Below, piece after piece: positions 414 to 64,000 of a stretch of 64,000 nucleotides of DNA (position 1 is the first letter of the stretch; every line of letters begins with the position of its first letter). Under the pieces are notes generated by a model. It did not search any database, was not told the DNA's origin, and worked only from the letters and a program-made list of their open reading frames with translations. The stretch comes from Podarcis gaigeae (lineage: Eukaryota): NCBI GenBank assembly GCA_964106915.2, contig OZ066929.1, one strand, 5' to 3'. The position numbers and the translations under genes are program-made.

Positions 414-24871
<24,458 letters not shown>

Positions 24872-40121: not shown

Positions 40122-40310
40122 TCAGCTGCTGAGCTGGCCACCATGATGGATTTTCAGACAATAAGCCAGTTCCGATTCAATGTCTTTGATTTTCTGCGCA
40201 ATGAGACTTCTCTTGATTCCCAGCAACACACTTTGGTCTCTCTTGGCAGCCCAAGATTCAAGATGTTCCGAGAAGTGCTGTGCTTTCTCCTCAGGAAGAC
40301 AACTTGCAGA
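40122..40310 (-). CDS. Large gene terminal exon ([20 protein letters not shown]...*)
   Basis: gtacag acceptor, 62 codons plus TGA. Confidence 0.8.
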
Positions 40311-40507
40311 CTGTACAATGGGTGGGGAGGAAGGAGAGGAAGTGGGAAACAGGCAGAAGAAAGCCATTGAGTTGTCCTGAAGCAATTACTGGAATAGTGG
40401 TTGAGGCAAGATGCTGTAAACCAGGAGATCTGGGTTCTCATTACTCTGGTGCTACTCAAGAAGAGCAAACCAGACTGTGTGGCCCCCTTCCTCCAGTTCT
40501 GATGCCT

Positions 40508-40552
<45 letters not shown>

Positions 40553-43500
40553 TCTTTATTGTCATTACACAAGTGCAACATTGCACAAGTGCAACGAAAT
40601 TGGATGCCATCCCTTAAAAACAACAAAAGCAACACAACAACAACAACCAAACAAACCACATTCCAGCCACACCCACACCCACACCCATCAAACTCCCAGG
40701 TCACACTATCGAGTTACTGCATTTAAGAAGGCCACAGCTCTTGGATAGAAACAACTATTTTTCAGTCTATTTGTCCTTGACTTGATGTTTCTGTATCTCC
40801 TGCCAGAAGGCAGTAGTACAAACAGACTGTGTCCCGGGTGAGATGCATCCTGCAGGATATTATTTGCTTTCCTAAGACAACGGGAACCGTACAGTTCTTC
40901 CAAAGATGGGAGGGGATGACCAATAATCCTTTGGGCTGTGGTTATGACCTTCTGGAGCACCTTCCTCTTCCTAGCTGTACAGCTGGAGAACCAGGCACAA
41001 ATACAGTATGTGAGAATGCTCTCTATGGAGCCTCGGTAGAAGGACACCAGCAGTCTCTCACTCAGATTGTTCTTCTTTAAAAGTCTGAGGAAATAAATTC
41101 TCTGCTGGGCCTTCTTCACCAGAGCAGTGGTATTTGCGCTCCAAGTCATGCCCTGATCGATAGTCACTCCCAAAAACCTGAATTCCGCCACCCTCTCCAC
41201 CCGTTCCCCGTTGATATACAAGGGCTGAATGTCCGCCTTTTTTTTCCTGTAATCCACCACCAATTCCTTGGTCTTAGTCGTATTAAGAGCCAGATTGTTC
41301 TCTCCACACCAAGCACAAAGCCGCTCCACCTCGTCCCGATAGGCGGACTCATCCCCTCCTGAAATGAGCCCCACCACCGTAGTGTCATCAGCAAACTTGA
41401 TGATTTTGTTGCTGGAATAAATGGCTGTACAATCATACGTATAGAGAGTATAGAGCAGGGGACTCAACACACAACCCTGTGGTGAGCCGGTGTTAAGGCT
41501 AAGGGCTGTGGACATATGTGACCCTACTCTAACCCTCTGAGAACGTTCTGACAAAAAGTCCAAAACCCAGAGACAGGTGGAGTTGGAGAGTCCAATCGCC
41601 TCTAGCTTGGACACCAGTCTATGGGGGAGGATAGTGTTAAAAGCAGAGCTAAAATCCACAAACAGCAGCCTCACATAACTCCCCGGCTGCTCCAGATGGA
41701 ACAGAGCAGCATGGAGAGTGGTAGTGATAGCGTCTTCCGTGGATCTATTTGCCCTGTATGCAAACTGGTAGTTGTCAAAAGTTGATGGAAGACAGGAAAT
41801 AATGTGACGGCGCACCAGTTTCTCAAAACACTTCATGATGATTGGAGTCAGTGCAACTGGTCTGTAGTCGTTCAGACTACTGATTGTGGATTTTTTAGGC
41901 AGAGGAACAATAGTTGACGACTTCAGGCAGGGTGGGACAATAGACTGGTGTAAGGACTTGTTGAAGATCTTAGTAAAGACCCTCGCCAGCTGATCCGCAC
42001 AGCCCTTCAACACCTTTCCCGTAATGCCATCAGGTCCAGCAGCCTTCCTCGGATTCACCATCCTCAATACCTGTCTCACCTCATGCTCCTCCTCCTCTTA
42101 CAAAGCACTTGCTTCAAGTTTGTGACTGAAGAGTGTTCAATGAAGGCAAGCCAACCTTCAACCAACTGGATGCCCTCCAGATGTTTTGGATATGCTGGCT
42201 GGAGGCTGATGGCAGTGGTAGTCCAAAACATCTGCAGTGGAACATCTGGTGGGAAGGCTGATGTAAACAGATTATCTAGTAGATGTTGAGTGAGGGACTT
42301 CATCATAGAATGAGTGAGATCTGTCTGCCCAGCCTCACTCTTTTGGGCACTAACTGACAATTTCCTGGTTTTTGTCCACCACATGCCCCAGAGTGTTTCA
42401 ATAAATGTTCCTTTGCATTGCCATTTTTAGCACTGTAGACATAGGGATCCATGCAGCAAGCACACTTGCCATATGATGTGTGTGAAGTGAGTTTGAAAGA
42501 GGGATGAGAAATTACTATTCCCTAGTTCATTCCTAGTCTTAAACACAATGCCCAGCCTTATGGGGCTATTGTGTAGATGTTGGGTTGTTGAGCACTTTGC
42601 ATACAAGGAGCACTATCAAGGCATATTCATCTGCATTTAAAATAATAGTCATTTGCATCACTGCCCCCTGCAATTAAATTGTGGTATGCACATACTGCAA
42701 ATGAGGGTGACTCCTCTTGTGCTCTGAGTTCGCGGTCCAGATGTTCCTCTTCTTCTTGGATTGTTAAGGCCTGCAATGTCAGCTGGAAGAAGTCCTCATT
42801 CAAGCCATCCAGCATCTCCTCCAGCTCTTCAATCTTCACCTAGAAAATGGAAACCATTAAGAAGAAGGAGGCCAAATGCAAGCGAGGACACAGCTGCTTT
42901 TGGAACAGTTTTGTAGAAGAGAGAATTTCATCATTTGCAGAAGGTCATTTCTTACTGCTAAAAAGGCAAGAGTAGCCCTTCTGAAAAGGACACAAGAGCC
43001 CTACCCTCTAATGCACTTGGGCATGCCACACAGATGCCCAAATTGCACATCATTGGTAGATCCATGGATGGGACTGACCTATGCTTCTCTCCCCGCATCA
43101 TGTCTCTTTGATAACATGTTGATGTTGTTTGTTAAACCACAATGCTGTGTCATTGCAATAGCCTTATCCTGTCCTCAGTGAGTGACAGTCTATGAAACAT
43201 GAAGGGTATTGTATCATATTATATAGCAGGGTGGGGAACTGGATCTGACCAGCAGGCTGGATCTTGAACCCCCCCCCCCAAACACCATGGGCTGTTTCCA
43301 TTCAGTGGTCAGATCTGCCCATGAGTCAACAACCTATTTCATACATTATGTCAGGTGAAGCATTTTCCTTTGCCTGAATGATCTGAAATCAAACCATGCA
43401 GGCAAAAAGAGGTTCCATGGGTACTCTGGTCGGCTGATGGGAGGCTCCTGCAAAACCCACTTCCACAAGGAGCCTTTGCCTGCCCTCCACCTGATGAGAT

Positions 43501-46500
43501 CGGTATAGTCTGGGTAGGCATGGCTTGGGGAAGACAGCAAACCAGAACCACTGCTAGGCTTTATTAGGCCTGCAGAAAGGAGGTTCTCCACAGCTTTCAC
43601 AGGTACACAACAGAGACATGGACCAGTGTCACCCATGTATCTCCCTTAATAGGTAGTCTGGGGTCCAGAGCCTTCCAGTCTTGGAATAACAGCTCATCTA
43701 GAACCAGGGGTCATTTTGCCCATCCTTTTACCTTTTGGCAAGCCCATTATTGTTTTGCTCAGAATGGCCAAGTGCCAGTCCTCATATAAATAACCCCTTC
43801 CCACCCTATCTGCATAAGGGGAGTATGAAAAGGCAGCCACCAGAAAACAACACATTTCCATAAAAAGGGTCTGCATATCAGAGCAAGACAGACTCTTCTA
43901 GAATTGGAAGGGTCTTCTTCCACTGGTGGATGGTGGAGAAGCCTGATTTACATGGCCCCACCTACTAGAGCAAGTAGGAGGTGCAATGGGACAACTCATA
44001 CTCCTTTCCACTGTAGAATAATGATATTGACACAGCAGACATAAACAAGTCTTGCAAGGGGCTGAACTAGATGATCCCTTCCAACCCTACAATTCTATTA
44101 TTCTAAGTTACAGGAGGTTGAGCCAAGTTGATTTAAGGTCAAGTGAGCTACCTGAAGGTCAGAGGAATCTCCTGCCCAAGTCTTCCTCTCACTGCTGCGT
44201 GCTCTTTCTTCAAGTTGCCCTGAAGTTTCCATTATATTTTGAAGCTCTGCTTGCAGCAGGAAACTTCTGTAATCTTGCAATCTGAGACACACAGGAAGAG
44301 AGGGGGAAAAAGGAAAGTAGGATTTTCTGTGTGTTGCACCTGCCTGCATCCAGAGGGCTAGCATGAAGCTCTCTGTCCATGCTTTGAAATGATGGAAAGA
44401 GGAGAGAAAAGAATTGACATGGTTAGAGAGCCCTCCTGGAGCAAGGCATCCATTAGGTTCCCAATATCATCTATTGTGGCTCATCCCTTTATCAGAGGAA
44501 AGAACCACATGACGAAGAGGGTTATATTAAACCAGTGCTGTACTCCCAGACCAAATTGAGTTAGGGGTGGAGTGCAACTGCTACTAACTCATTCAAAAAT
44601 GGAGAGATTCTACACTTGCTACTACATCAGAGCTATGTGCAGGATGGGCCTGTTTAGAAAGTGAACAATCTGGTTCCAGAGAATCTAGCTTGCCTGAAAT
44701 GGCTGCTTTGCTTCAGAAGGTTATTGAGCCATTGCAGACATCCTGGTGGCCTAAATCAATCACTGAGGCAATGGAGGACGCTGTCTCACTGGAGCCAGTG
44801 GACCTTCAGCTGAAGCTGAATGTTTGAAGATTCAGGACATTTTTTTAAAAAAAGCACTTTTTCACACAGTCCATAGTTAAACTATGGAAGTCGCTCCCAT
44901 AAGAGGCAGTGATGGCCACCAGCAAAACAGGCCTGGACAAATTCATGGAGAAGACCATCCATGGCTACTAGCCATGATGGTTGGATACATTAATGCATCT
45001 TAATACCAGTTGCTGAAGACTGCAGGAAGGGAGAGGGCTCTTGGGCTCAAGTCCTGCCTGCAGCTTTCCCACAGGCATCTGGTTGGCCACTGTGAGAACA
45101 GCATGCTGGACTAGATGGGCCACTGGCCTGATCCAGCAGAGCCCTTATGTTCTTATGATGTGTGTTGGGCCTAGAACACCCTAAGGAGATTCCTTTACCC
45201 ATGGAGGTTTTGTTAGACATCACCTTCCCCCTACCTTGTCCACATTTTCCCACTGCATGGCTATTTCTGACTGCTTCTGCCTTCTAAAGAATAGGAAAAA
45301 TGCTACATGCCTCCAATCTGACCAACCCACAGAAGGATGAGGAAGAAAAAAAACCTGTCCCCAGTTTAGTTTTGATGGAGCTCAGTCAGCATCCAGCTGC
45401 TCCAAGCTAAGCAGGACCAGAACTGGAGGCCAGTTATACCTTCAACTGCCAAGCATGAAAATTCTAACACTAATTTGCATACAGCTGACTTGTTGTATGT
45501 ATTGTGATGGAAGCAAGACAGGTCGGCAGGTGCAGGCTGCACAGAGCAATGAGGTCATAACAAGATCGGCCAATGTGGAGTGCTTTCAATTTACACCATT
45601 GGGCCAGCAAAAAAAGTAAGAGCATGTTTTCTTAGAAACTCTTTCAGCCACAACATCGTCTCTTAATCCTCTGTCTACTGAGGACATAATTGATGCATAA
45701 TTGAAGACTGAGAATAATTTCTGAGAACTATGAGATATCCCCGTGGAAAAGAATGGATGTTGCACAACTGCACTGCTGGGTTGATTGCCTGTATTTGGTA
45801 TCAGGATATTACCCAAGGGCAGAGTCTGATTCATTGCTTGTAAGGGAAGATGAGATCCTGTAGATAAATGAAAGAATGGTTTTTGAAAGGCATTTTACTG
45901 CAGGGATATCGTCCTACATAGCTCCAGTTATCTAAGTGATTCTTCTGAGCAAGCTTATGTTGCGTATGGTATGTGCCTCTGGCATCATACTTATTTATTT
46001 ACACAGACAATCCTCAGATGTTGCCTATTGCAATTCTGTACTCCCAGAAGCTGCTTCAAAAAATGCAGGACAGGGCTGCTGGCAGGCTGGTCCTGGGTCC
46101 TTATAGCATGGGGCTGGCCCACCCATGAGGCAATATGTGATGAGACCATGATGAGTGGCAGGATCCAGAGGGGCAGCAGAGCATTGCCTGCTGATGTTGC
46201 CAGAAGTAAGATCTGGCTTCTCTTCAGTAGCACCTCCAATGCTGCCTCTACAGCAGCCTCTTGTTGAATTAGACACAGTACTGATCTCCTCCTATCCCTA
46301 GGGAGGAAATGGGCAGGGGCTGCCCTTTCGGGTCTCCTAGGATCTGCACCTATCCAGCATGATTCAGAGAGAGCCCTGTGACAGCCTTTGTTTCCCGCTT
46401 CAACCACCAGGTGAAGTTGATTTGATTCCCCTATTTTCCCAGTGTAGATCTTTATCCCCCCCCCCCCACGCCTGTTCTTGATGTATATCTTCTTGATGTA

Positions 46501-47939
46501 TATCTTCATTCACCCCTTCTTCCCTAGTGGGGTGTGTGTGTACCATTTTGTGGTTTGCCACAGGTGCCGAAATGCCTTGCCCCAGTCTTCTTACTGCACC
46601 ACAGCAAACACTGTTTCCAAAGTAAAATAAATTATAAACTCTTGCCTTTGCAATTTGAGACTCTTTGTCTGGCCCTCCAATGCACTTGCTGCCTATGCCT
46701 GCCAGGATCTGACCCAAGCCTGATCCTGTCAGCTTACCACTTGGATCCCTCTAGCCAATATTTGTACAACTAGGAAAGGAGAAGATGGCTGCACACATAC
46801 ACCATACATTTAAAGTGTGTTTTCCACTCCCAAAAGAATCCTGGGAACAGTTTATCCAGGATTCTTTCTGGGGGAGGCAGAGAAGGTGCATGGTGTATAT
46901 GCAGCTGATACCCTTATTCACTGACTCTGCCTGGCACATAGAAAACTATAGTGGTGGTAAGGTTTCTTTCGAACACAAATCTACAAGCATGGAGTCAACT
47001 AATGGACATTGATAGATGCCTCCTTTTTCCAAGAGTCTTCTGTTCCTTGTCAGTAGCCCAGTTATCAAGCAATGGGGCTCCCACTATTAGTAGTTTACTC
47101 CACACAAACCCTTCCTTGAAGGAGATGTCAATAGAATTATCTGAGCTCAGTGACTGTTCTCAGAATTATCTCTAGGCTCAGTAATTGTTATCAGTGATGT
47201 AAATGAAAAACAGGACCATTTTCAGATAATAGATATGTACCGAAATTAAATACACAGACAAAATTCATTACAAAGGGCTAGCTTCCTCTATTTCAGTGAG
47301 ATAGGGAAGAAGGAATTAGAACATTATGTAAGCTAAATAATCAATTGTGCAACTGAAAAATGACCTTGTTATTGGAATATATGCACTAATATCGCAACAC
47401 AGCAATATGACACGAGTACAATTATTTGTCTGTCACAATCTTGGATTACTTATCTAGTGAAACCAACATCAGCTACCTTTCCCGTGGGCGTTGCTCAAGG
47501 AAACGAGAGTCAGGCAACATTCGGAGACTCAGCAGTTCTTCAAAAATCGACCGAGCAGCTAAACAAACAGGCGAGCAATTTTTCATCGGATTCTGAAAGA
47601 ATCAGCACAGAAGGCAGAACTTTTAGTGGTCCTAATCAAAGGATCTATTCATCAGAAATATCGAGCGCCCAAGATTTTGCTGACATCGTGGGATTATTAT
47701 TATTATTTTTTTATTTGCATCCAGCTGCTTTGAAATTCAGGCCTTTGGGTTTTTCTTTTCACAACGCAAAAGCTGGGGGTTGAAAACAAAAGAACAGAAA
47801 GCATACACAGAAGTTAAAAGCTCACATTCTACAGCCTTTTTCTGTAATTTAATAATTCTAACTTTTATTTCTGATTGTAGTAATAGGTAGGGATGCCTGA
47901 GAAATTAGATTTCTGTGAATCCTGATCTGAATTATTATG

Positions 47940-47970
<31 letters not shown>

Positions 47971-48990
47971 ACATTATATCCCACTTTTCATCCAAGGAGA
48001 GCAAGGTGACGGGTACAATATTCTCTTTCTCAATTTCATCCTCTAAACAACCCTGGGAGGTAGGTTAGGCTGAGAGATGGCGACATGTTCAAGATCACCC
48101 AGTGTGATCTTGGAGATTTGAACTTTGGTCTCCCAAGTCTTAGTCCAGCAATATACTGTAACCATTACACCACACTGGATCAATTGGTCTGATTCTAAAA
48201 CTTCTATTCATGGGTCAGCAAACCTTTTCAGCAGGGGGCTGGTCCACTGTCCCTCAGACCTTGTGGGGGGCCGGACTATATTTTTTTGGGGAAATGAACA
48301 AATTCCTATGCCCCACAAATAACCCAGAGGTGCATTTTAAATAAAAGCACACATTCTACTCATGTAAAAACACACTGATTCCCAGACCATCTGTGGGCCG
48401 GATTTAGAAGGCAATTGGGCTGGATCCGGCCCATGGGCCTTAGTTTGCCTACCCATGTCCTATATCATGTACAGTGGTACCTCGGGTTACATACGCTTCA
48501 GGTTACAGACCCTGCTAACCCAGAAATATTACCTCGGGTTAAGAACTTTGCTTCAGGATGAGAACAGAAATTGTGCTCCGGCGGCACAGCGGCAGTGGGA
48601 GGCCCCATTAGCTAAAGTGGTGCTTCAGGTTAAGAACAGTTTCAGGTTAAGAACGGACCTCCAGAACGAATTAAGTACATAACCAGAGGTACCACTGTAA
48701 TGGATAGGAATTTGGGGATAGAGAAAAGAAACTACCTCTTTGTGCAGCGCTTAGTTCAACAATGGAACTCACTCCTATATGGGACAGTGAAGGCCACCCA
48801 CATGAATGGTTTTAAAAGAGGATTGGGCAAATCTATGCAGGACAATGGCTATTAGGCATGATGGCCATACTGCACCTCCACAGTCAAAGGCAGTAATCCT
48901 TCTGCCTACCAGTTGAGGGCTCTTGTGCTTAGGCCCTGCTTGAGGGTTTCCCACAGGCATAGAGTTAGCCACTGTGAGAACAGGATGATA

Positions 48991-49035
<45 letters not shown>

Positions 49036-50990
49036 TTATTATTTGTGCCCCGCCCATCTGGCTGGGTTTCCCCAGCCACTCTGGGCGGCTTCCAACAGAG
49101 ATGAAAAATACACTAAAATGTCACATATTAAAAACTTCCCTGAACAGGGATGCCTTCAGATGTCTTCTGAATGTCAGGTAGTTGTTTATCGCTTTGACAT
49201 CTGATGGGAGGGCGTTACCGAGAAGGCCCTCTGCCTAGTTCCCTGTAACTTGGCCTCTTGCAGTGAGGGAACCACCAGAAAGCCCTCGGAGCTGGACCTC
49301 AGCGTCCAGGCAGAACAATGGGGGAGGAGACGCTCCTTCAGATATACTGGACCTAGACTCTACAGGTCATTCGCACAATCCAGCAGGTTCTCCTCATGTG
49401 CTTATGAATTCAACTATTCTTCCGATTTTGTGCTTCTCTGAATTTGGCAAGATCATTTGCAGCTCATGCTCCAGAACCATTTTAGAAAGTGTCATTTACA
49501 ATTTAGAGCCACATCTGTAGTGCTACAGCATGCACATCTGGCCAGAACACCTGAAAACTTATTACCTTCCCTGCTGTCTCTTCTGCTCCCCAAGAACACT
49601 GGAAAAAGGCATCAGCTAGGGCAGCCACTGCTGTGTTGAGCTCTTTCCAAAAGCCAACGTTTGGAGGAATAGCTTCCTTAGAGCCTGGGAGAAAGATAAA
49701 AAGACCGATCTGTGTCATCAGAATTCTTTGAATCCTCCAGATGTAGCCTCACCCAATATGGAAGCCCCTTTCCATTAGACACTCCCATCTGGAGATTCAG
49801 AGTTTTGTTCAGTTCACTGTCCCTTGCCACAATATTACACCTTTCTGCATGCAACCATCCAGGCCAGATGAGATGTAGTTCAGGAGAGCCAAGCTCCAGA
49901 CCGAATTTTTTAAGCTAGCTAAAGTTTGAACCACAATTTTGTCCAATTACTCATAGCAGTCAAGCGATGAGACTGTTTTGAAGATTCAGTAAGCTAAACC
50001 CATCTTCAGCTCGCCCTTTTGGAAGCCTGTCTGCATTATTAGGCAGGGCTTGTGTGGTGCAACATGCAGATTTAGAAATAGGCAAAACCTTCAGCAGAGC
50101 ATCTCATAAGCCAGGAACCCACACCTCCATTGTGCTATTGTTAGCATAAGGCACAAACAAGGAAGAGGCCAGACTCTCTCCTGTAATATGCTCTGCAGAT
50201 CTAGTTCTTGGAGCTGCTGTCTCTCTGCTTTCCTCTGCCATGATCCTGCGCAATGAAAGGTTAAGGAAGGAAGTGAAGAGACAAAAAAGATCTGCAAAAG
50301 GTCTTTTTGTCCTTGCTTACAATATTACCCAAACAGCAGAAGAAACTATCACAATGAAGGAAGTGTTGTGCCAAATACCTGCTACACAAACAGGATTAAA
50401 AAAAAAAAAATTCCCTGCACCCAATTATGCGGAAAGGATATCATTAGATCACAGGGTGTAGCAGCCTTCTTTGCATTTGACATGGCAATTGTCAGAATTT
50501 CATCATTATATTCCAGGCATTCAAATCAGCCTTCAGTACTATGAAGTACATGCTTTTGCATGCAGAAGATCCCTAGTTCACTCCATGACATATCTACAGT
50601 TAAAGGAAACCAGGTATCCTTTAGCTGTAGATATCATGGAGGGAACAAGGGACCATGTGAAAAGAAACAAACTCTGGGGATTGTTGGAAAAAATGACAAC
50701 CCCATGTCAAGTTCCACGTCCCCTTGAATAATGTATGAACATCTTGGCAATACATAGAATCATAGAGACATAAAGGACCCCGAGGGTCATCTAGTCCAAC
50801 CCCCTGCAATGCAGGAATCTCAACTAAAGCATCCATGACAGATGGCTATCCAACCTCTGCTTATAAACCTCTAAGGAAGGAGAGTCCACAACCTCCTGAA
50901 GGAGACCATTCATTTCTTTCACTCCTATTTTTTATCATTGGGTAGAGGGAGCAGAGAAATCCACATCAGAATGACATTAGGACATGCAAC

Positions 50991-51026
<36 letters not shown>

Positions 51027-54000
51027 TATTACGGTCAAAGATCAGTTCAAGAGGACAAGCAGTAAACTGAAATAGATCATGGGTAGGCAAACTAAGGCCT
51101 GGGGGCCAGATCCGGCCCAATCGCCTTCTTAATCGGGCCCGCGGACGGTCCGGGAATCAGTATGTTTTTACATGGGTTATTTGTGGGGCCTACCTAGTGT
51201 TTTTGCAGGAGCAGAATGTGCACTTTTATTTAAAATGCATCTCTGGGTTATTTGTGGGGCATAGGAGTTCATTCATTATTTTTTTCCAAAATATAGTCTG
51301 GCGCCCCACAAGGTCTGAGGGACAGTGCTGAAAAAGTTTGCTGACCCCTGAACTAGATGTTTCAGAGCATGAATGTTGGCACAGGGCTGTCATTTTCATT
51401 GCATTGCTAAATTCTGGGTGGCAAGTATATATATATAAAAGAACATGTCTGGCACTTTTGAATGCCTCTGTCAGTCAGAGTTGACAGTGCTGGGTTGGAT
51501 GGTCTGACAGCTTCCTTCCACCTAACTATACCTGCTTTGATGTGTGCCATGGCATTCAGCAGCACCGTCACAAAACCCCCAGCACTCTCCAGGTGTGATG
51601 AAAGTATATACAGGAACCTGTTGGTGGCATCATAGTAGGAATCTCTGGCAAACTGAACCTCCGTAGGGCCTTGCTTGGGGACTGCTTGAGCCAAGAGGAG
51701 AACCAGCGCTGGCAAGGAGAAGGCTCTTCCCAGAAGGCGTGTGACAGTGCAGGCAAAGCGGTAAACCACAAAATGGCGAGGGGAGAGGCTGGTGAGGTCA
51801 GTGGGAACCACAGCATCAACAGAAGGTCCTGAAGAAAGGCAGCCATTATCTATGTTTTCTCCTGGAAAAAGGGGACAGAATAATGGAAAGTTGGCACTGA
51901 AAGTCATTCTATAGTCAAATACAGTGTTTCCCAAACTTGGGTCTCCAGCTGTTTTTGGACTACAACTCCCATCATTTCTAGGTATCAAGACCATTGTGGT
52001 CAGGGATGATGGGAATTGTAGTCTAAAAGCAGCTGGACACCCAGGTTTGGGAAACATGGGTCTAGGATCATGCATGAGGAACCTTTGGCCCTCCTGATGT
52101 TGCTGAACTACAGCTCCCATCAGCCCTAGCAAGAAAGGCCAATGGTTAGGGATGATGGGAGTTGTAATTCATCAACATCTGGAGAGCCAAAGGTCCTAAA
52201 GTCTAAAAATAGCACTATTCTGAAAGCAAGTTCTTTATTCCTGAATCACCTCAGTCCCTAAACAAAGCCTTATCCCTGTGTTTGTGAGATGAAAAGGGAT
52301 GTTTGCAAAATGAATAGGGATGTTTCAGGAGTTAGGTTTTTCTTAAATAGTATATTTAGAAACATATATATCTCTGACAGTGAAGGCAGAGCATTGCCAT
52401 CATGGCTAGCAGCCACTGACAGTCTTATCCTCCATGAATTTGTGTAATCTTCTTTTAAAGCCATCCAAAGTTGCTGGCCATCACTGCTTCCTATCGGAGA
52501 GAGTGCCGTGTTCATTTATCTGTCCTGGGAGCTTTCAGCGTTCAGCTTCACTGGATGTCCACAAGCTAGGGCATCATGAGAAAGGAAGACAAGCTTTTCT
52601 CTATCCACTATCTCTGTGCCGTGCATAATTTTATGGCTCCTATCACATCCGCTTCTTAATCACTTTAAACCAAAAAGTCCCAGATAAGATAGCATCTTAA
52701 GGGTTGGCTGCCAGAGACAGTCAGATATAATATAAACGGCCGCCAGAGTGCACATGAGATTTGCTTCCCATCCCCCCACATGTTTCCTGCTTAAGCCCCC
52801 ATAGGTAAAGGTAAAGGGACCCCTGACCATTAGGTCCAGTCATGGCCGACTCTGGGGTTGCAGCGCTCATCTCACTTTACTGGCCGAGGGAGCCGGCGTA
52901 CAGCTTCCAGGTCATGTGGCCAGCAGGACTAAGCAGCTTCTGGCAAACCAAAGCAGCGCACGGAAATGCCGTTTACCTTCCCGCCAGAGTGGTACCTATT
53001 TATCTACTTGCATTTTGACGTGCTTTTGAACTGCTAGGTTGGCAGGAGCAGGGACCGAGCAACGGGAGCTCACCCCGTCGCGGGGATTCGAACCACCGAC
53101 CTCCTGATAGGCAAGTCTAGGCTCTGGGGTTTAACCCACAATGCCACCTGCATCCTTTTTAAACCCTGGAGATTTAAAGAGCAACCTCATCATTCTAAGA
53201 TGGAACGAAGCAAAGCGAAGGAATCACCAAACTACTTTGATGATTTGCATGTGTTTCTATGCATCATTCCCACTTCCTCTCTGAGACAATCCCAAGAAAC
53301 ACAGGGATGATGGGTATCAGAAGATGCAGGAATCAGCTCTATCACCTGGAGCAGGAGGCGAGTGCGGGGGCTGCTGGGATGTCTCCAAAAACTGCTTGAT
53401 CTCGCCCAGGGTCTTGGCAAGGGGGGACGTCGCCATCAGGGCCTCTACTTCCAGCTCACTTACGCAAGCAAGCATGCTGCTCTTGGGAGGCTGCAGGTCC
53501 AACCCTGACAAATACAGACAAGGCATATTATCAGCTGAAGGTGCTGCTTGTAGACTCAGAGAGACAAGGATGAGGATGATGACTTCATGCAGATTACTAA
53601 ATTCATGCAGCGGGGAGGGGCTGTTATGTAACATACTGTCACAAGGGTCACTTGCATGGCCTGAAAAAATGACCTGTACATACATAACTGATGCTCTGAA
53701 GCTTGCAGACCGCATGCGGCTTATGTTTCCATCTAGTGGCAGCTCAGGAGAACTGCATCTCCCAACAACCGCAGACAGGGAGAAACTAGACGGGCAATTA
53801 GGATTTCCTGTGGTTTTGTGTGTATTATTTTAAACTAAGCGGCTGCTCTCAAGATTCCGCACGTTTTGAAAAGTGGTGTTTTCAGAAAGATTGCTAACCA
53901 TTTCCTCCTTTAATCTGATATAAATTGCCCCTTCCTGCTGTTAACACATGCAATTGTTTTGTTCTCAGAAGCCAACAGCATCTCTGGAGGAGCTTCGCTA

Positions 54001-54454
54001 GGGAAAGGGTATGGATGTTTAGGACACCAGCTTCAGTGCTGATGTTTACAAGAGTCCTTTGTGTCTGCAATTTTCACTGGGAGGGGAAAAAATCACCTTT
54101 CAGAGGAGTAAATGAGAGTCCTACCCAGCCATGCAAATTGCATGCGTGCACTGGGGTCATCATGTGTACCTGTGAATGGATGGATATTTCAGTGGATTGG
54201 GTATGTGGATTAGAGAAAGGATGTGGACTGGCTCTATCAACTTTTGTTTCAGGCCCCAAACACATTATCCCAAAGGGTTCTCCTTCCCTGTTCTGTAACC
54301 AGGTAAAAAGGCTGCACACATCCTTACCTTGGTCTTCACAGGCACGAGAGCTAAGGGAGGCCCGTTTCCCACCGGAGAGCACACGCTGTGTCAGGGAGCT
54401 AGTACCCTACACAGGAAATAATGTTCAAATATCACAGGAATGAAAGACAGAGAC

Positions 54455-54503
<49 letters not shown>

Positions 54504-57500
54504 GCCAAAGGGAGACCTTCATTCTTACCGGGCATCTTTGCTGAGTTCCAGCTTGCTCTCGGATAGCCAGGCCAGATCCACTAGCCCCATTGTGCCCCTG
54601 TGCCCCTTCTGGCTTCGCCGTCACCTTCCCAAAATGGATTTTTCGCAGCAAAATCCCCAGGACTTTCATTAACTCTGTTGCCTCCTGCCACTCAGAACCT
54701 AAAAGAATTCAGCAAGGCATTAATCAGTTAATACAGCTTCCTAAACAGCCTGTAAGCAGCTGTTTTCATGCCTCTTGGAGATTTGTTCATGAACACAGCT
54801 ACATTCGGAGCAAAGAAGCAAGCTCCATGGGTCACCACAAGTGTCACAGTGAAATATCCATAAGAAAAGAGACAATTAAAAGGTGCAAAGGAGAATTTTA
54901 AAAATGAAAAACACACTGTTATTTGCTTTCACATTTTGGTCAATTTTAATGGGTGCCTGGCACTTGTAGAAAATCCCTTTTTAAAAAAATGGCAGGGAAG
55001 TGTTCTGTTTTCCCTGTTTTCCCAGCTCTCTCACCTGAGTAGCCCATTGCTTGCAAGACTCCAGAAAGCTTGATGGAGGAGCTCTCACTTTCTTGGGTCT
55101 CCTTGGCAGAACTGAAGGTGACCTGGGCTCTATCCCTGGTGACTGTGGACCGTTCCATGCCCTTCAATGCATCCATGTCCACTGTCTGTACCAGATCCTA
55201 CAAACAGAGATCAACAGCCTTAATGCTTTACTGATGTCTCAGATTTTATGACCTCATCAAATTGCTTTTGCCTTCATTGGGGAACATTACATTGCTTAGG
55301 AAAATAGGAAGCTGCCTTATGGAAAGGTCAGACTATTGCCCATCAAACTTTTGAGTGGCAGAGGCTTTCCAGGGTCTGAGGCAGAGAGAATGGCACTGGG
55401 CCCTGTAAACCAGGGATAAGGAACTTCAGTCTCTTTTTTTGCCAGGGGTGCATGTCAAATGTGGCCCTCCACTCCTCTCTATCTGGCCCTCGGCACTCTC
55501 CCCACACCACACCCCTTCCCAGCCAGCCACACCCTCTCTCCATAGGCCACACCCCTCAGGGGCCCTGCTTCATTTGTTGCTCCACCCACTTTATCTCTGG
55601 TTCTGCCAGCCACTGCATGTGGCCCCCAGAAAGTGGCCCGGAAGAGACTGCTACCTTTGGATTGAAAAAGGTTCGCCAGCCCTGCTACAAACATTTCCTA
55701 GTGAGCTGCTCTGGAAATCTGAATCACCCATCTCCTTAACCAAGACTTTCCCTTGGTATGTCTCACCAAGCCTCACACCAGACCTACCCTGCCTCACCTC
55801 AGTAATCCAGTCTGCTGTTTTCCTCTGCCAGCCCATTCATGACTATGCCGCCTGTTCCTGGCCCACAAGCCCATTGCCACATGCCAGGGCCCAGATTTCA
55901 TGGTGGCCTGTTTCAAGCCAGACCCCAGGCCTGACAGTCCCCTAATTCCCCAGCAGCCATCAGGGGGGCGCCTCCTTTCAGCTTCAAGCTTATTGTAATT
56001 TAGCCACATCAATGGTGCTCGTAGGTGTGCATTAATGTATGCTAGGGCAGAAACATTTAATGAGGGCCAGGGATCTAAAACCTGCCAATGTTGAAGGACC
56101 TTGCCTGAGCGGACAGACTCAGGGGCAACACCTCTTTGTTGCCCAGAAGTGTGAAATTTATTGCTATATTCTGCCCCAGTGGAGTTTTGGTACCTACATC
56201 TAGAATGGCCACCACCATGTGATTGGTCAAGAGTCATGATCTAGCTAATCTGGTCCATAGATGGGCAGGTGCATTATACCTATTAGTAACCCATTCAGGT
56301 GAGTGCAGTGCTCCAGTTCGTTGGAAATAAAGTGGGGTCAAAAGCAAATGAGCAAATATATTTCTACACATATGCTTCCCTCCTCACAACACTGACCAAA
56401 AGACTCTGGATCTTCTGGCTGATGCCTCGGTAGAAGGCCAGGACATCTGCCCGGTGTTTTGCTAGCTGCGATGCCAAGTGAAGGTTCTGGTCCTCCAGCT
56501 TGTCATATAAAGTGCGGACGCTGAAATCTTCCAGGTCTTTTGTTGCAAACTGGTCGCCTGAAACAAAGGCAGCTTATCCATTTAATTGACTAAGACCTTA
56601 GGTATAAAGGAAAAAAAGCTTTGCGGTCCTTATATTGATTTATTTCTTGGTGGTGGGAAGGGAGAAAAAGAAGCTCAGAAATGGAGAGGCTCTTCTGGTA
56701 ACTCTCCCTTCTTATCTTGTCTTCAAAAATGGCAATGGGATGAATGGTTGGGACAGAAGAATCCAGGTTCAAATCCATGCTCAGCCACATAGCTTGCTGG
56801 ATATACTGGAACAATCTCTCTCTCCCCCCCCCCCTTCTCTCTCAGTCTAAACTACTGCACAGGATTTCTGTGGTGAAACAACAACAACTGGGCAGACTGC
56901 ATGAAAAACCAGCCTGATAAGAACATAGGGAAAACTCTGGATCTGTACAAAGGCCCATCAAGTCCAGCTTCCTGTTCTTACAGCTCCTACCCAGGTCCGA
57001 GATGCGTATGGGAAGACCAGAAGTAGGACCTGGGTGCAACCACCACCTTCCCACTTGTGGGTCCCAGCCAGTGGTATTTAGAGGCCTCCTGCCTCTGGCA
57101 GTGGAAGTAGAGCAGCCACTGATCACCTTATCTTGACCTTGGGAAATGATCGTGCCAGCCTGTCTCACCTGATGCTGAATCTTCTACCATTCCAGCCCCA
57201 GGTGAAGACCTTTTTGAATCCCTTGAAGATCTACCCTAGAAGTTGGGGGCTGCACACAAATGTGGTCAGACATCCTTTCCCAAACTGGTGTCCTCCAGAT
57301 GTTGCTTGACTACAACTCCCATCAGTCTGAGCAAGCATTGGCCTATATGGTTTTGCATGTACAAAACCATCTGAAAGGCACCAAGTTGGGGAACGCTATT
57401 AATGAGGGTGAAAGAGGAGAGCGCAAAATATGGTCTGAAGCTCAACATCAAAAAAACGAAGATCATGGCCACTGTTCCCATCACCTCCTGGCAAATAGAA

Positions 57501-60500
57501 GGGGAAGAAATGGAGGCAGTGAGAAATTTTACTTTCTTGGGCTCCATGATCACTGCAGATGGTGACAGCAGCCATGAAACTAAAAGATGCCTGCTTCTTG
57601 GGAGAAAAGCAATGACAAACCTAGACAGCATTGTAAAAAGCAGAGACATCACCTTACCGACAAAGGTCCGTATAGTTAAAGCTATGGTTTTCCCAGTAGT
57701 GATGTATGGAAGTGAGAGCTGGACCATAAAGAAGGCTGATTGCCAAAGAATTGATGCTTTTGCATTATGGTGCTGGAGGAGACTCTTGAGAGTCCCATGG
57801 ACTGCAAGAAGATCAAACATATCTATTCTGAAGGAAATCAGCCCTGAGTGCTCACTGGAAGGACAGATCATGAAGCTGAGGTTCCAATACTTTGGCCACC
57901 TAATGAGAAGAGAAGACTCCCTGGAAAAGACCCTGATGTTGGGAAAGATTGAGGGCACAAGGAGAAGGGGATGACAGGATGAGATGGCTGGACAGTGTTC
58001 TCAAAGCTACCAGCATGAGTTTGACCAAACTGCAGGAGGCAGTGGAAGACAGGAGTGCCTGGTGTGCTCTGGTCCATGGGGTCACGAAGAGTCTGACACG
58101 ACTAAACAACAACAACATGTAAGAAAGAGAGTGTGTGACACATTATTGAATGAGAATGAATAGAAGTGGGAACTACAACAAAATGTGGCAGTGTGAAGTG
58201 CTCCATGCTCAGGATTCAAACTATTGCATTCCATTTCTCTTGCCTCCCCCCCCCCCCCAGTTTTTCACCTCATCCCCTCCTCATCAGTGAGCATCCCATG
58301 CCCTCTGAGCAAGCCCGTAGAGCTGTTTTAGGGTTTTCGCTTACCCCCTCCTTTTAAGGTTTTCCCTGCTAAACATTTGATGCTGCCCGTTTGTGCCTGG
58401 GTGATGTCATTTTACACAAGCAATGCCATTCACAGCCTGAACTTCAGGAATACAGGGAAGGATCATGCAGAACTTTGGCTAAGTGGGTCAAAACCTGAAA
58501 TCAGTCCCCAGAAAACCACAAGATTGGAAGCAAATATTGACAGTTTTCACAGCGTCCCTAGTGAGGTGCCCTAGATACTTCCAAAGTGTTAATTATCAGC
58601 TTTTATTAGTCTGGTATGATGTGCGCATGACATTCAAGCCATTCAGGGTGCAATATATATATATATATTTGTGTGCTCATTTAAATCCACTTTATAGGTT
58701 CAGAAGTTACTCTTGGCCACTCACAGTGCTCATAAGAATGGTCTATCAGTGTGAGTGGTATTGTGTGAACTAGGAGCACACAAATTTCAGAAGCAGCAAT
58801 GGCCATTATCACTAATCCTTCAATGCGTAATTTTAATGATTATTTTTTGCTAAAGCTGTAATAGCTGAGATCTGCAAATTCACAGAGGGCACCACTTGGG
58901 CATTTGTAGTTCTTAGGTGAATTACAAAAGTTCCCAAGGTATCCACAGTGGCCTTTTCATACATCAGACTTGTTTGGAAGCCTAATTCTAGGTCCCTAAT
59001 GAGTTCATGTGCATGACACATGTATTTGCAAGCACAAATTTGCCTCCACTTTTCATTTTCTGGTGTACACATCAAACATCCTAGGTCTACAACTTAACTG
59101 AGAGAATTTAGTAAACTAACTGTCAGGGTGACAGTGGGAAATGAAATGCCCTTCCTTGATTTTTTCAGTGATTTTTTTGTAGCGGAACCACCCCCAAAGA
59201 GTGTAAACACTGCCATCTGCTGGACATAGCTCCACCTGCACTATCATCAGTAAATGCTTCCACCTTGGAGATCTCACAGACTTACATTCTCATCTGACTA
59301 AAACAAACGTTACTGCACCATAGTGAGTTATCCGGAGAACAGGCAAGCGTGATCAATATACCTTTGCCAAACCTGTGCCCTGCAAATGTTTTGGACTACA
59401 ACTCCCATAATGCATAGCAATTGTTTAATTTGGTCTGGGGGTGATGGGTGTTATAGTACAAAGCAACTTGAGGGCTCCAGGTTGGAGGGAAACCAGTTTA
59501 GAGGGAACCAGTGGGGAGTGCTAATCCATACCCACATCAAATAACCCCACAAATTCTGAAAAAGTCCAGGAAACCAGCCACCAGAGCGTATGTGCCATTG
59601 CTACCAAGCAATTGATGTTCAGCTTTAAAATGGCCCTTGCATGTGCAAATGAACAGTATTCATTTTCTCCCCTCTGGGAGGTGTGACTTTCCAAAAACAT
59701 CCCATGCTGGATTGTAGCTTCAATTACAGCACATGTCTTGCTTCAGTGTTTTGGGGTTGCTTTGGCAAAGTCGTTTCGGGTCAGGGATTTCCCATGTCAG
59801 GACTGGAGATCAAAATTGCTTGCCAGCATTTGGGTGTCTGTGTGGGAGGGGGGAATATGCAACATTCACCTGCCTGTTTGTGAGAACATGGAGCCTAATC
59901 TTCCAAAACAAAGTCTTACCTAATCCTGGGAAAGTTCCCTCTCCTGCATCAGGTTCTTCTCCAGATCCCTGGGAGCCAAGAGCTTCATAGAACTGGATGC
60001 TACAAGAACAGGGGGAGAAATGCACACAAGAGCTTGAGAAAGTGCCTCTTTTAAAAAGGCTGTCTCTTGTGTTGAGACTAGGGATGGGAAGATCTGTTAA
60101 CTGGGAGTACTCTCATTTTCTTATTTCCCCTCCTCACTCATAGAGGAGAAGGCTATCTATGGCTACTAGGCATTACAGTGGTACCTCAGATTAAGTACAT
60201 TAATTTTGGGAATACGTACAACAAAATTAGAATCTGGTAAAATTTTATTTTTATGGTTTATTACTGTTTATATTTTGAAATAGGTATACAGTGGTACCTC
60301 GGGTTAAGTACTTAATTCGTTCCGGAGGTCTGTTCTTAACCTGAAACTGTTCTTAACCTGAAGCACCATTTTAGCTAATGGGGCCTCCTGCTGCTGCCAC
60401 GCCGTCGGAGCACGATTTCTGTTCTCATCCTGAAGCAAAGTTCTTAACCCAAGGTACTATTTCTGGGTGAGCGGAGTCTGTAACCTGAAGCTTATGTAAC

Positions 60501-62329
60501 CTGAAGCATCTGTAACCTGAGGTACCACTGTATGGCTATGCTTTGCCTCCACAGTTAGAGGCAGCTGAGGTAGAAATTCTGCAAAACCCATGACCAGGAA
60601 GGCCATTGCCGCTATGCAAGTGTGCAGCCTGGCCACAAAACTGACAGTAATCAGTTTTGAAGGAACCTAACTTTCTACTGGAGTGGAAAACAATCCCAGA
60701 TAAGATGCAAGGAGGGCTCTGCACATACAGCAAAAAACAATAACAATACCATAGGTTGAATAAGTGTTTTTAAGAACTATAGTTGGGTGAAGTGTTGGGG
60801 TGGCAAAATGTGGTTGAACAAATAGCCAAGATTATGTATATTTCTCAAAGAGGACTTGTGCGAATGGAATGCTCTCACAGACTCTTTTGGACTCTGTCCT
60901 GTAATACATGACTGAATATAAGAGTCTGACTAATTGGGAATCTGGTCTGAGCCTCTGTATTGAATCTCCAAAGAGAATTTTCTTCCATGCAGTAATGCTG
61001 CTGAACTGCAGGATGGGGTATTCCTCTTGTGATTGGGTCTTCCTTGCAAGTTTCCCATGGGTATCTGGCTGCCCACTGTAAGACCAGGATGCTGGACTAA
61101 GGTGGGCCATTCGCCTGACCTAACAGGTTCTTCTTATGTTCATTTATTCACATTCACACATCAGTTTATAATTTTTAGTTTTCTTTTTAAAAAACACACA
61201 AGCTGCCCCTGTTTGTTTTAAGAACGAAATTTCTGTTTGTTGCCCCAAGTCAGGATGGGGGAAGAAATTCAATTCAGTTTGCTTTGATAGGTGAACCTAC
61301 CTAATTCACACTTTTCAGAACAATGCATGAACAAGGCATCCTATGAAATTTGCACTTTTCCTGATTTCACAGTGCACTTTTAAAGTCAAGCAATTGTACA
61401 AAAAGGTATGGATTGGGCAAAAGTATGCATAAAGCTGCACATATTAATGAAAAAAGCCTGTCCAATGCCACCCACCACACCCCGGGGCCACCAGGCCTGA
61501 TGGGGGGAAGGGGGAGGCTGCGTGAAGCGGTGCTGCCCCCCCACGGCCCACGCCACCACCAGAGGCACAGGGGCGCAGCCAGAAAGCCCCCCGCACCACT
61601 ACCTGCCACCTCAGGGCAGCCAGGCCTGCCCAAGGGAGGGGATCACCTTTAAAAGGGGATCCTGAGATCAAGTGCTCCTCACCATCCCTTTGAGGCCCTG
61701 TGGTGGTGGGGGGAGAGGCGAAAGACCCCAGGTCTGTCTTTGGAGCAAGGAAGTCCAGCAAAGTCTTTTCCAAAGAAACTCTGGAGCCAACTGTTGATTC
61801 CCAGATAAGATCCTCCCCCTATTGTGTGGGCAGGGTGGTCCCTCCCCCTACCTGGCCTGATCACCTTGGCAACACCTCCCCAGGCGGGATTGGGCAACTG
61901 GCTGAGGTAGGCGGAGACCTCCAGGTATTCCACCTGGAGAAGGCGAAGCCAAGCCTGTGCTAATGGTGCCGCATAGGGTCCAGGGGGCTGCAGCTGCACA
62001 TGACCATGCAAAGGGCACCTCCCATTTAATGTGGGGAGCGGTTATGGGAGGGATCACAAACTGATGTGGAAATGTGAAGAACCGAAGATTGAAAAAAAAT
62101 TAGAATCTGAGAGACAGTAGAATTGATGCCCAAGGTGGCATAGGTGATGAGGCTTCCGTCACTCACCTCTCTTTAATGAGCACATACTCTGGGGGGATGT
62201 GTGGTTCTCCCAAGCTCCTCCACCGCGGCTTCCAGCTCTTCATTGGGCTTGGAGCAGAGATGGGATGCCTCAGGAGAACAACTAAGGCTGTCAACACCAC
62301 AGTGAGGAACCCCAGGATGAAAAGCACAG
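40122..62329 (-). CDS. 3' 13 exons (~666 aa) of a large uncharacterised membrane protein, probably a GCC2_GCC3/ephrin-receptor-like cysteine-repeat family member (mouse Gm32742/Gm9195, zebrafish si:ch211-286b4.4-like); 5' end outside window
   Basis: 13 GT-AG exons with fully consistent phases, 2003 nt, ending in TGA at 40122. Contains TM helix [19 protein letters not shown], motif [24 protein letters not shown], conserved-looking block [12 protein letters not shown]...[11 protein letters not shown]...AMAHIKA, and a C-terminal coiled coil. Family call from recalled motifs only. Confidence 0.85.
40509..42097 (-). mobile_element. Rex1/Babar-type non-LTR retrotransposon, 5'-truncated, intact RT frame
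   Basis: ORF 42079..40706 (457 aa) with [48 protein letters not shown] and a DUF1891-like C-terminus ([11 protein letters not shown]). 3'UTR has AATAAA and a (TCTA)n tail; possible short TSD CTTA. Confidence 0.9.
42696..42839 (-). CDS. Large gene exon l (acidic coiled coil, [18 protein letters not shown])
   Basis: ttctag/gtatgt, 144 nt. Confidence 0.83.
44152..44281 (-). CDS. Large gene exon k ([14 protein letters not shown])
   Basis: tctcag/gtagct, 130 nt. Confidence 0.8.
47477..47592 (-). CDS. Large gene exon j ([16 protein letters not shown])
   Basis: tttcag/gtagct, 116 nt. Confidence 0.8.
47940..47970. repeat. (TTG)n microsatellite
   Basis: Direct read. Confidence 0.9.
48472..48697. 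mobile_element. Tigger-like MITE, same family
   Basis: TA-CAGTGG...CCACTG-TA. Confidence 0.85.
48990..49350 (-). mobile_element. L2-type LINE 3' end with (ATT)n tail
   Basis: ccccgcccatctggctgggtttccccagccactctgggcggc, also present at 38228. Confidence 0.7.
49566..49684 (-). CDS. Large gene exon i ([17 protein letters not shown])
   Basis: tcccag/gtaata, 119 nt. Confidence 0.8.
50754..50910 (-). mobile_element. CR1 LINE 3' end
   Basis: atagaatcatag...tctagtccaacccc...aaacctc..aggaaggagagtccac, similar to the 16628 copy. Confidence 0.75.
50992..51025. repeat. (ATC)n microsatellite
   Basis: Direct read. Confidence 0.9.
51078..51350. mobile_element. hAT MITE; same family at 15057-15305 and 48209-48457
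   Basis: TIR CATGGGTAGGCAAACT/AGTTTGCTGACCCCTG; 8-bp TSD aaatagat/aactagat. Confidence 0.82.
51532..51861 (-). CDS. Large gene exon h ([12 protein letters not shown]...AMAHIKA)
   Basis: ttccag/gtatag, 330 nt. Confidence 0.87.
52804..53156 (-). mobile_element. Sauria SINE, full length
   Basis: Reverse complement of the 37813 copy; ggtaaaggtaaaggg tail. Confidence 0.9.
53346..53504 (-). CDS. Large gene exon g ([18 protein letters not shown])
   Basis: tgtcag/gtgata, 159 nt; other in-frame acceptors lie slightly upstream. Confidence 0.75.
54328..54406 (-). CDS. Large gene exon f
   Basis: gtgtag/gtaagg, 79 nt; needed for the phase 0 to 1 switch. Confidence 0.72.
54458..54500. repeat. (AG)n microsatellite in a 122-nt intron of the large gene
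   Basis: Direct read. Confidence 0.9.
54529..54698 (-). CDS. Large gene exon e
   Basis: ttttag/gtaaga, 170 nt. Confidence 0.78.
55035..55197 (-). CDS. Large gene exon d
   Basis: ttgtag/gtgaga, 163 nt. Confidence 0.8.
56397..56557 (-). CDS. Large gene exon c ([24 protein letters not shown])
   Basis: tttcag/gtcagt, 161 nt. Confidence 0.88.
57400..58116 (+). mobile_element. Bov-B (RTE) LINE 3' fragment
   Basis: ORF 57402..57974 with [45 protein letters not shown]; (CAA)n tail. Confidence 0.92.
59920..59999 (-). CDS. Large gene exon b
   Basis: ttgtag/gtaaga, 80 nt; bridges phase 2 to phase 1 as required. Confidence 0.8.
60176..60530. mobile_element. Composite Tigger-like MITE (extra TIR + filler + full copy at 60289-60530)
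   Basis: Two CAGTGGTACCTC left ends and one right end; TA TSD. Confidence 0.75.
62167..62329 (-). CDS. Large gene exon a (TM helix, [11 protein letters not shown])
   Basis: ttttcag/gtgagt, 163 nt. Confidence 0.85.
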
Positions 62330-62732
62330 CTGAAAAGGCAGGAGAACACAGTGGTGATTAAACAAAGGGAAGCTGGTCACCACGATTTCTTCTCAGAGGC
62401 CTGATGTGGTCTAAGGGAAGTTCTTGAGTTCCCTTCCCCTGCTCCACTTTATCCAGGTGGCATCCATTAATGGTTCACAGTTCATGCTTCCTTCCACCAC
62501 CTGCTTAACACCCCCCATAGCCTCCCAGCAGGCATTTCTCTATGGTTCAGGTGCCTCACACTAGTCCACATGGCTTCTTTGGCCTGAACTGACCATCCTT
62601 CAGAGGCAGCAGGGCTAAAGCTGAAGAGGCAGAGTTTGCAGCAGAAATGGGGACCTGTGTCCCTCCGGGTGCTTTTGGACTCTGTGGATTTATTTGAATT
62701 AAGTTTTAGTTGGCATTGTGTAATGTGTTCTG

Positions 62733-63084
62733 GAGGAGACTCTTGAGAGTCCCATGGACTGCAAGAAGATCAAACGTATCCATTCTTAAGGAAATCAGCC
62801 CTGAGTGCTCACTGGAAGGACAGATCATGAAGCTGAGGCTCCAATACTTTGGCCACTTCATGAGAAGAGAAGACTCCCTGGAAAAGACCCTGATGTTGGG
62901 AAAGATGGAGGGCACAAGGAGAAGGGGACAACAGAGGATGAGATGGTTGGATGGTGTTCTTGAAGCTTCCAGCATGAGTTTGATCAAACTGCGGGAGGCA
63001 GTGGAGGACAGAAGTGCCTGGCGTGCTCTGGTCCATGGGGTCACGAAGAGTCGGACACGACTAAACGACTAAACAACAAACAAC
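62733..63084 (+). mobile_element. Bov-B LINE 3' fragment
   Basis: [15 protein letters not shown]...GVTKSRTRLND; CAA tail; TSD GTGTTCTG. Confidence 0.92.
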
Positions 63085-64000
63085 GTGTTCTGACATTTGC
63101 ATTGCAATGTGTATTGTATTTGGTGTATACTGTATAGGAATTATAGCCCAGCGACACCAGAAGAGACAAAGGTTCTTGCCTCTCATAAGAAGAACCTGCT
63201 AGATTGGATCATCTACTCCTGCATTTTGTTCCCATAATGGCAATCCATTGCTCTGCTGTTTCGTTTCAATTATTTACTTGTTTTCATCCCGTATTTTATT
63301 CCGTGAGCTGCCCTGAGATCTTATGATGAGGGGTGTTATGTAATAAATCTAATAAATAATTAAATAATCCAGGTGCCTTTGGGAAAGCTGCAAAGGCATG
63401 ATCCGAACACAAGAGCACTCTGCCCTCCTGTGGTTTCCAGCAAGTAGTATTCAGAAGAATTACTGCCTCTGGCTTCAGTTCTTATGGACTGGGACAGATC
63501 TGTCTAGGCTAGATGGGAGTTATAAGTCGAGTAACATCTGCAGAGGCACACGGTCTCTCCACTCTAGGTCTTTCACTCCACTTTGTCTGCTGCGACAAGG
63601 TGACCCACAAACTAAGTCCTTTCCTTCCATGCAGAAATATGGGTGCGGTTCAGCTGCAAGAGCATTGGAAACAATGCTTAAGTGTCTGGCCTATTTGAGG
63701 CACAGAAAGGAAAAACAAGTCATCCTTAGAACTCTTGCACAGAGAATACTTCTTGAGATCACACTATGCCTAGCTCTACTTTGCAATCCAGACCAAAGCA
63801 AATATTCCACGGTGTGTTTATTTTGACACCAGCGCGTGCTGGAAACCATGACGTTTGCTGCTCTTATGTAACAAACTGAAGAAAGCAAAGCCACCTATTA
63901 CTTGCATTCTTAAGGCAAGGTGTGGCATACCTGGGCTGCTCCTCATTGCTAGCTCCACCTGCTATTGCTATGCAGCAAAGAATTGCTTACACAGGAGGAG

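Follow-up and report, generated by a model that had tools for sequence, protein, structure and literature searches.

What kind of protein is encoded on the minus strand of a 64,000-nucleotide (nt) stretch of Podarcis gaigeae DNA (contig OZ066929.1 of assembly GCA_964106915.2; the whole stretch, G000:C28:24366001-24430000, is hereafter called the window), where 13 exons running from position 62329 to position 40122 close a gene that continues 103 kb past the window? An initial annotation, made from the letters of the window alone, regarded these exons as the C-terminal ~666 amino acids (aa) of a large receptor-like membrane protein, likely a vertebrate relative of the cysteine-repeat modular proteins (CRMPs). 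The gene is real and intact, and it is present in databases but unstudied. By its sequence, the product is a 4,651-aa single-pass membrane protein with type-I topology, and the gene has Gm9195 and si:ch211-286b4.4 as its orthologues in mouse and zebrafish, respectively; architecture and orthology, taken jointly, can be held with high confidence.

The 13 exons comprise 2,003 nt in total, which is exactly 666 codons plus TGA with no stops, and all of their junctions within the window are GT-AG. As a control for chance, pieces of equal lengths were drawn at random from the minus strand 20,000 times, and no such set was free of stops. Contigs of related lizards, from runs taken by guess to be RNA, agree with this structure: a 1,307-nt contig of run X1 contains four exons without introns, with a spacing that fits the four exons between them, and a contig of run X2 joins 56396-56559 to 55033-55196. 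The phase-consistent, stop-free chain of exons described initially is thereby confirmed. When 200 kb was fetched upstream, minus-strand cysteine-repeat frames were found out to ~164,500 in continued numbering, and alignment to the Podarcis muralis protein P0017 yielded a full gene of 88 exons across 127 kb (13,956 nt, no internal stop), with GT-AG at 87 of 87 introns and 4,508 of 4,636 aligned residues (97%) identical. Exons 1-75, outside the window (G000:C28:24430467-24533348, minus strand), encode a signal-peptide-like exon, a cysteine-repeat arm (to ~aa 3760) and a membrane-proximal module. The annotated start of P0017 was rejected because it enters intron sequence with a frame slip, and the upstream signal-peptide-like exon was used instead; a candidate exon at 45283-45235 was likewise discarded for its broken frame, and 47592-47477 was taken in its place.

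The arm (aa 1-3760) contains 397 Cys and ~3,600 aa of cysteine repeats. The ectodomain carries 110 CxxGx[YFWH]C motifs, and PF07699 (Ephrin-receptor-like, GCC2_GCC3) matches P0017 with an E value of 3.3e-20 (72 bits against a cut-off of 23.1), so that the cysteine repeats anticipated upstream of position 64000 are indeed present. No further Pfam family was detected on P0017 at E ≤ 0.1, and hence no MAM, vWD, TSP1, LDLa or EGF family, which are presumably the domains that define zonadhesin, SCO-spondin and MEGF6; the database labels attached to orthologues (zonadhesin, SCO-spondin, MEGF6 and SCUBE3) look like repeat-driven guesses. A single strongly hydrophobic segment is found at aa 3986 (Kyte-Doolittle 3.04), and two weaker hydropathy windows (1.62 and 1.80) fall inside a soluble domain. 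The corresponding transmembrane helix (62327-62271, aa 3986-4004) is encoded by exon 76 (62167..62329, present in contig X1 record 5), next to the in-window part of intron 75 (62330..64000), and is followed by a conserved basic [10 protein letters not shown] segment, as originally described. N-glycosylation sequons number 33 ahead of the helix versus 1 beyond it, in accordance with the type-I topology that had been proposed, and the cytoplasmic tail is 647 aa in length. The resemblance to CRMPs does not extend beyond the common repeat: CRMPs are defined, in the accessible text of PMC9815656, by a conserved core with nine transmembrane helices, versus one here, and CRMP identity was rejected.

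The orthology was assessed in a quick-search tree of 79 membrane-proximal modules hand-chosen from 174, in which the window gene stands beside that of P. muralis in a vertebrate clade of 33 rows (Shimodaira-Hasegawa-like approximate likelihood ratio test, SH-aLRT, 100), together with Gm9195 and si:ch211-286b4.4; the clade broadly follows species order. The P. muralis orthologue is listed as LOC114585457, uncharacterised, and the mammalian orthologue models are shorter than the lizard protein. An ATPase, presumably ATP12A from its sequence type, is located at 7219-24112 of the window on the plus strand and matches, with 59-92% identity by exon, the ATPase portion of P0075, a fused sheep gene model, the relative orientation of this shared neighbour differing between the lizard and the sheep, the one mammal compared.

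A profile built from reptile sequences gave 806 matches at E ≤ 0.001 among 1.84 billion representatives, of which the best 150 were returned. Named homologues are found in lizards, snakes, turtles, crocodilians, birds, amphibians, sharks, ray-finned fish and several mammals; in amphioxus, a hemichordate, echinoderms, an annelid and molluscs; and in Intoshia, Chromosphaera (two), Fabomonas and Entosiphon, a reach to euglenids and ancyromonads that bears out the predicted occurrence in both animals and flagellated protists. No primate protein was among the named rows, and no search aimed at human status was made. In the literature, from which subscription papers were mostly outside coverage, neither a functional study of the family nor a description of its architecture was found, in keeping with the initial statement that no function was known for the vertebrate members; the accessible texts name Gm9195 and si:ch211-286b4.4, and the other family identifiers were not found in them. 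The names given to this gene in databases are misleading, even though it is intact over 88 exons in a lizard and its family extends from vertebrates to euglenids.

The vertebrate rows fall into paralogue A, which includes the window gene, and paralogue B (P. muralis LOC114585855, fish si:dkey-103g5.4), found in P. gaigeae at G000:C28:20705111-20769721 on the minus strand (L022-L028), where exons match Podarcis proteins at 78-100% identity. The two loci are 3.7 Mb apart, and a head-to-head pairing was rejected on that account. Paralogue B has just 4 scattered cysteine motifs within 200 kb and none of the cut motif described below (0 of 7 rows), and it retains HCLAH and a long tail, so that the losses mirror each other: arm and cut site are kept by the window gene, and metal site and long tail by B. 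The tail of B also contains repeated DPxTG-like motifs. A further unnamed clade of the family (P0121, P0124, P0126, P0130, P0132 and P0135-P0137; SH-aLRT 95) has strong furin-type loops, which suggests a third paralogue group.

Beside the membrane, at ~aa 3794-3942, a cupredoxin-like fold is predicted, with an RQRR loop at aa 3828 of the lizard protein. The region was modelled on the bird-like orthologue P0098 with 50 sequences (mean predicted local distance difference test, pLDDT, 80.4), and residues 121-269 of the model align with plastocyanin at Z 6.9 (root-mean-square deviation, rmsd, 2.7; 91 of 98 residues); cupredoxin-fold proteins occupy the top ranks, and Foldseek returned a cupredoxin probability of 0.97 with E 0.033. 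The column assigned to the copper Cys by motif likeness to the plastocyanin pattern holds Asp in 141 of 155 homologues and no Cys among the listed residues, so a blue-copper site is probably absent; the likely first copper His is retained in 133 of 155. Within the cupredoxin range, the strands at 121-127 and 130-134 of the model are followed by a low-confidence loop at 151-170 (pLDDT 66 and 59). This loop contains RX[RK]R in 67 of 150 homologues (5 of the 155 having been left out for loop length), versus 0.6 expected from other windows of the proteins. Among 40 non-vertebrate rows, an RRLL-type motif is found in 19, a furin-type motif in 15 and either of them in 32, versus 1.2 expected; RXXL is a described site-1 protease motif (PMC11231238, accessible text). 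These counts point to convertase-type cleavage within the loop, which is probable.

On the other side of the membrane, the tail is predicted to contain a minigluzincin-like fold without the catalytic Glu. The tail was modelled on the snake orthologue P0012 with 44 sequences, confidently across most of residues 211-340, and the top 7 of 48,161 chains compared with this model all have the zincin fold: Wss1 (Z 8.7, rmsd 3.1, 108 aligned), AQ_1354 (8.2), abylysin (7.6), Schizosaccharomyces pombe Wss1 (7.3), selecase (7.3), HtpX (6.7) and 6mdx (6.7); Staphylococcus aureus YbeY reaches 6.3. Foldseek placed selecase and jannalysin first (E 0.05-0.07), and a repeat comparison was concordant. Most of the domain lies in exon 83 (51532..51861), starting at 51817 (aa 4325), and its final helix lies in exon 84 (49566..49684), to ~49590 (aa 4451). 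The globular block, low-complexity linker and terminal coiled coils (heptad stretches) recognised initially are retained, whereas the limit of the block at 51532 is not; the cytoplasmic domain, left unnamed in the initial annotation, can now be given a name, albeit that of a predicted fold.

Two His in an HxxxH arrangement are present on the aligned helix in 56 of 153 distinct domains. They occur in all 46 domains with the ancestral (F/Y)RNS-type motif, which belong to invertebrates, protists, sharks and paralogue B, and in 10 of the 107 others, mostly bony-vertebrate A; Asp is located nine residues past the second His in 38 of the 46 ancestral-type domains, counted by eye. Glu at helix position 2 is absent from all 153. 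The lizard motif is the degenerate NAMAH (51556-51542, aa 4412-4416), in which the first His is lost. Since Wss1 activity requires the catalytic Glu (PMC5557861, accessible text), the domain is best read as a pseudo-peptidase, and it is very probably non-catalytic in the lizard. A zincin fold that often has both His and never Glu is an unusual pseudo-enzyme. Pfam scans gave no family for two in-window exons and none near the cut-off for 15 short homologues, and a 17-sequence profile of the ancestral domain, searched against PDB sequences and NCBIfam, retrieved no peptidase and mainly weak coiled-coil matches. In an Atlas feature search, the zincin-like domain resembled small unnamed proteins of 91-185 aa, mostly from phages, at 0.90-0.93; these clusters may be stand-alone relatives of the domain. 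Weaker Atlas rows, which are leads only, were SprT-like (0.79, 11% of members) and WLM (0.77, 76%). A link to EVC2 was considered and dropped; no EVC2 family was found in 21 long homologues.

The remainder of the tail, all on the minus strand, consists of linkers and helices. Exon 77 (59920..59999, 100% identical to P0017) encodes a juxtamembrane linker and exon 78 (56397..56557) the [16 protein letters not shown] helix, whose motif is located at 56534; this helix, from aa 4074 on, is conserved from shark to mouse and predicted to form a long helix or coiled coil (residues 16-77 of the snake model). A variable linker (exon 79, 55035..55197), a short helix with low-complexity linker (exon 80, 54529..54698), more low-complexity linker (exon 81, 54328..54406) and a conserved helix pair (exon 82, 53346..53504) lead to the globular domain, beyond which are a conserved IFEELL helix (exon 85, 47477..47592), exon 86 (44152..44281, found in X6 record 21), the strongest heptad stretch (exon 87, 42696..42839; aa 4537-4585), which is retained in mammals too, and the terminal helix with the TGA stop (exon 88, 40122..40310). 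Between the transmembrane helix and the zincin-like domain lie 146-326 aa in vertebrate A and 1,034-1,065 aa in vertebrate B; the spacer of the non-vertebrate rows, at 1,077-3,956 aa, is long and suits a linker role.

From this anatomy, in part observed and in part predicted, we infer cleavage, oligomerisation, docking and a site of action. The protein may act as a tether or a force sensor composed of two chains after cleavage, its probable site being the surface of cilia or sperm flagella, a reading that is favoured tentatively and given somewhat less than an even chance. The loop in the cupredoxin-like domain would be cut in the secretory route by a convertase of furin type in vertebrates; in many invertebrates and protists, the enzyme would be of site-1-protease type (RRLL). 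Because such a cut would leave the first two cupredoxin strands on the outer chain, the long arm would remain held non-covalently, attached without a peptide link, and could be pulled off or shed. The LEDF helix of exon 78 would form a coiled coil through which the protein oligomerises, and the zincin-like domain, rather than being a protease, would dock a partner from the cytoskeleton or the trafficking machinery; in deep lineages it would bind metal, and in the lizard it probably lacks metal. For the ciliary or sperm site taken by itself, the chances are about equal either way. The holders of named homologues are, we assume, ciliated lineages. The accessible text of bioRxiv 10.1101/650218 lists the zebrafish orthologue as one of 14 genes with higher levels in testis than in ovary. 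When 11.0-12.8 million reads were taken from each of four raw RNA runs of a different lizard, depth was zero in 7 exon-holding bins and was seen in two bins shared with other sequence; set against the spliced contigs of other runs, the lack of depth suggests restricted expression. A records check for RNA data holding the queried exon listed none. Three gene names had no match in the searched supplements of the Foxj1-target paper PMC4199137.

A number of points weigh against the tether or force-sensor reading and the anatomy beneath it. The splice sites were picked by a script that rewards agreement with P0017, so that the junctions, in contrast to the exon interiors, are not independent of that protein, and exon 1 was selected because it resembles the N-termini of Anolis and chicken, no signal-peptide predictor having been applied. 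Both folds rest on models of orthologues, namely snake P0012 and bird-like P0098; neither model had a Foldseek match at E ≤ 0.001, and the Z scores of 8.7 and 6.9 are close to the 7-8 often reached by models without a clear match. Strict RX[RK]R is kept in only 53 of 108 vertebrate-A rows, the cut sites being weaker in birds, most frogs and mammals. The zincin-like domain was found in none of 23 mammalian rows, some of which are fragments, and it would therefore be dispensable there. The link to cilia is built on a small number of named taxa and a single testis record.

The position of the putative cut, close to the membrane, would also fit a Notch- or fibrocystin-like signalling receptor, in which shedding is followed by an intramembrane cut that frees a signalling tail. 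According to the accessible texts, a proprotein convertase cleaves fibrocystin at 3616 aa, and a second cleavage probably takes place close to the only transmembrane helix of that protein (PMC6992733); SREBP is cut twice, first by site-1 protease, which cuts RXXL motifs (PMC11231238). The tail, however, comprises a coiled coil and a pseudo-peptidase, extends up to ~4,000 aa in protists and contains no Pfam signalling or DNA-binding family, and a signalling receptor of this kind is unlikely. The 33 sequons and 397 Cys of the outer part, together with the convertase loop, would also be expected of a shed structural glycoprotein, whose arm would be a filament of matrix, mucus or gamete coat and whose tail, shorter and more decayed from invertebrates to mammals, would be a decaying remnant in vertebrates. 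This is quite unlikely, given that the LEDF helix and terminal coiled coil are retained from shark to mouse and that the zincin-like domain can still be aligned in lizards, snakes, turtles, alligator and several birds. An exocytosis sensor like the alveolate CRMPs, the direction in which the initial annotation had pointed, would make secretory organelles, for instance the acrosome, release their contents. This idea could draw on the testis bias of the zebrafish orthologue and the shared Ephrin-receptor-like repeats; the modules on either side of the single hydrophobic segment differ from those of CRMPs with their nine-helix core, and such a role is very doubtful. Finally, an active, Glu-independent metalloenzyme, at least in deep lineages and paralogue B, is highly improbable: the YbeY nucleases, to which AQ_1354 presumably belongs, are assumed to need no Glu, AQ_1354 and S. 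aureus YbeY are among the structural matches, and the paired His and the Asp beyond them mark the ancestral-type domains, but the idea is unlikely to hold for the lizard protein with its NAMAH, and both His are present in only 10 of the 107 domains outside the ancestral type.

The tether or force-sensor reading can be extended to the whole family, with a probability that is low. The family would then be a eukaryote-old, undescribed group of receptors serving as ciliary or flagellar force sensors, with an arm anchored through two strands of a cupredoxin domain that a convertase has cut and with a metal-binding pseudo-peptidase tail, in which vertebrate paralogues A (arm and cut site) and B (HxxxH and long tail) act together. 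On this extended reading, the split cupredoxin domain would join SEA, GAIN and Notch HD as a further, new device for release; if it does act in release, it would represent a new way to build a cleaved two-chain receptor.

Several features lie beside the gene or in its introns. Directly downstream, a small PF15874 (Il2rg) gene, presumably C22orf15/CXorf65-like, occupies 36333-30913 of the window on the minus strand; turtle, alligator and cobra gene models fuse it to the large gene, which is probably an annotation error. A stretch at ~40530-42100, noted as past the stop codon, resembles by eye a retroelement fragment after a GATA repeat. Intronic high-copy repeats with very high read depth, which we take to be BovB- and Sauria-SINE-like, are found at ~52820-53150, 57400-58115, 60285-60533 and 48500-48700.

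Compared with known systems, the protein would be a new variant among cleaved giant single-pass receptors. Notch is a giant single-pass protein whose outer part is cut by a proprotein convertase. Fibrocystin (PKHD1) is likewise a giant single-pass protein with a convertase-cut outer part (PMC6992733, accessible text). No domain families were found in common with either, and the predicted cut lies here inside a cupredoxin-like fold. Apicomplexan CRMPA/B are similar in being very large and in carrying Ephrin-receptor-like cysteine repeats, but the accessible text of PMC9815656 describes Kringle or lectin domains in some of them besides the nine-helix core, whereas a single helix is flanked here by a cupredoxin-like domain and a zincin-like tail. 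Ephrins and the SRS and s48-45 domains are cell-surface examples of the cupredoxin fold without a copper site (PMC6485061, accessible text); an ephrin-A1 complex chain matches the P0098 model at Z 4.3, but the domain described here is nearer to plastocyanin by Z and is preceded by ~3,700 aa of repeats. Wss1, selecase and abylysin share the predicted fold and the approximate position of the HxxxH helix with the tail domain, which differs from them in the absence of Glu from all 153 domains, the loss of the first His in the lizard, the lack of a sequence-level match and its place in the tail of a membrane protein.

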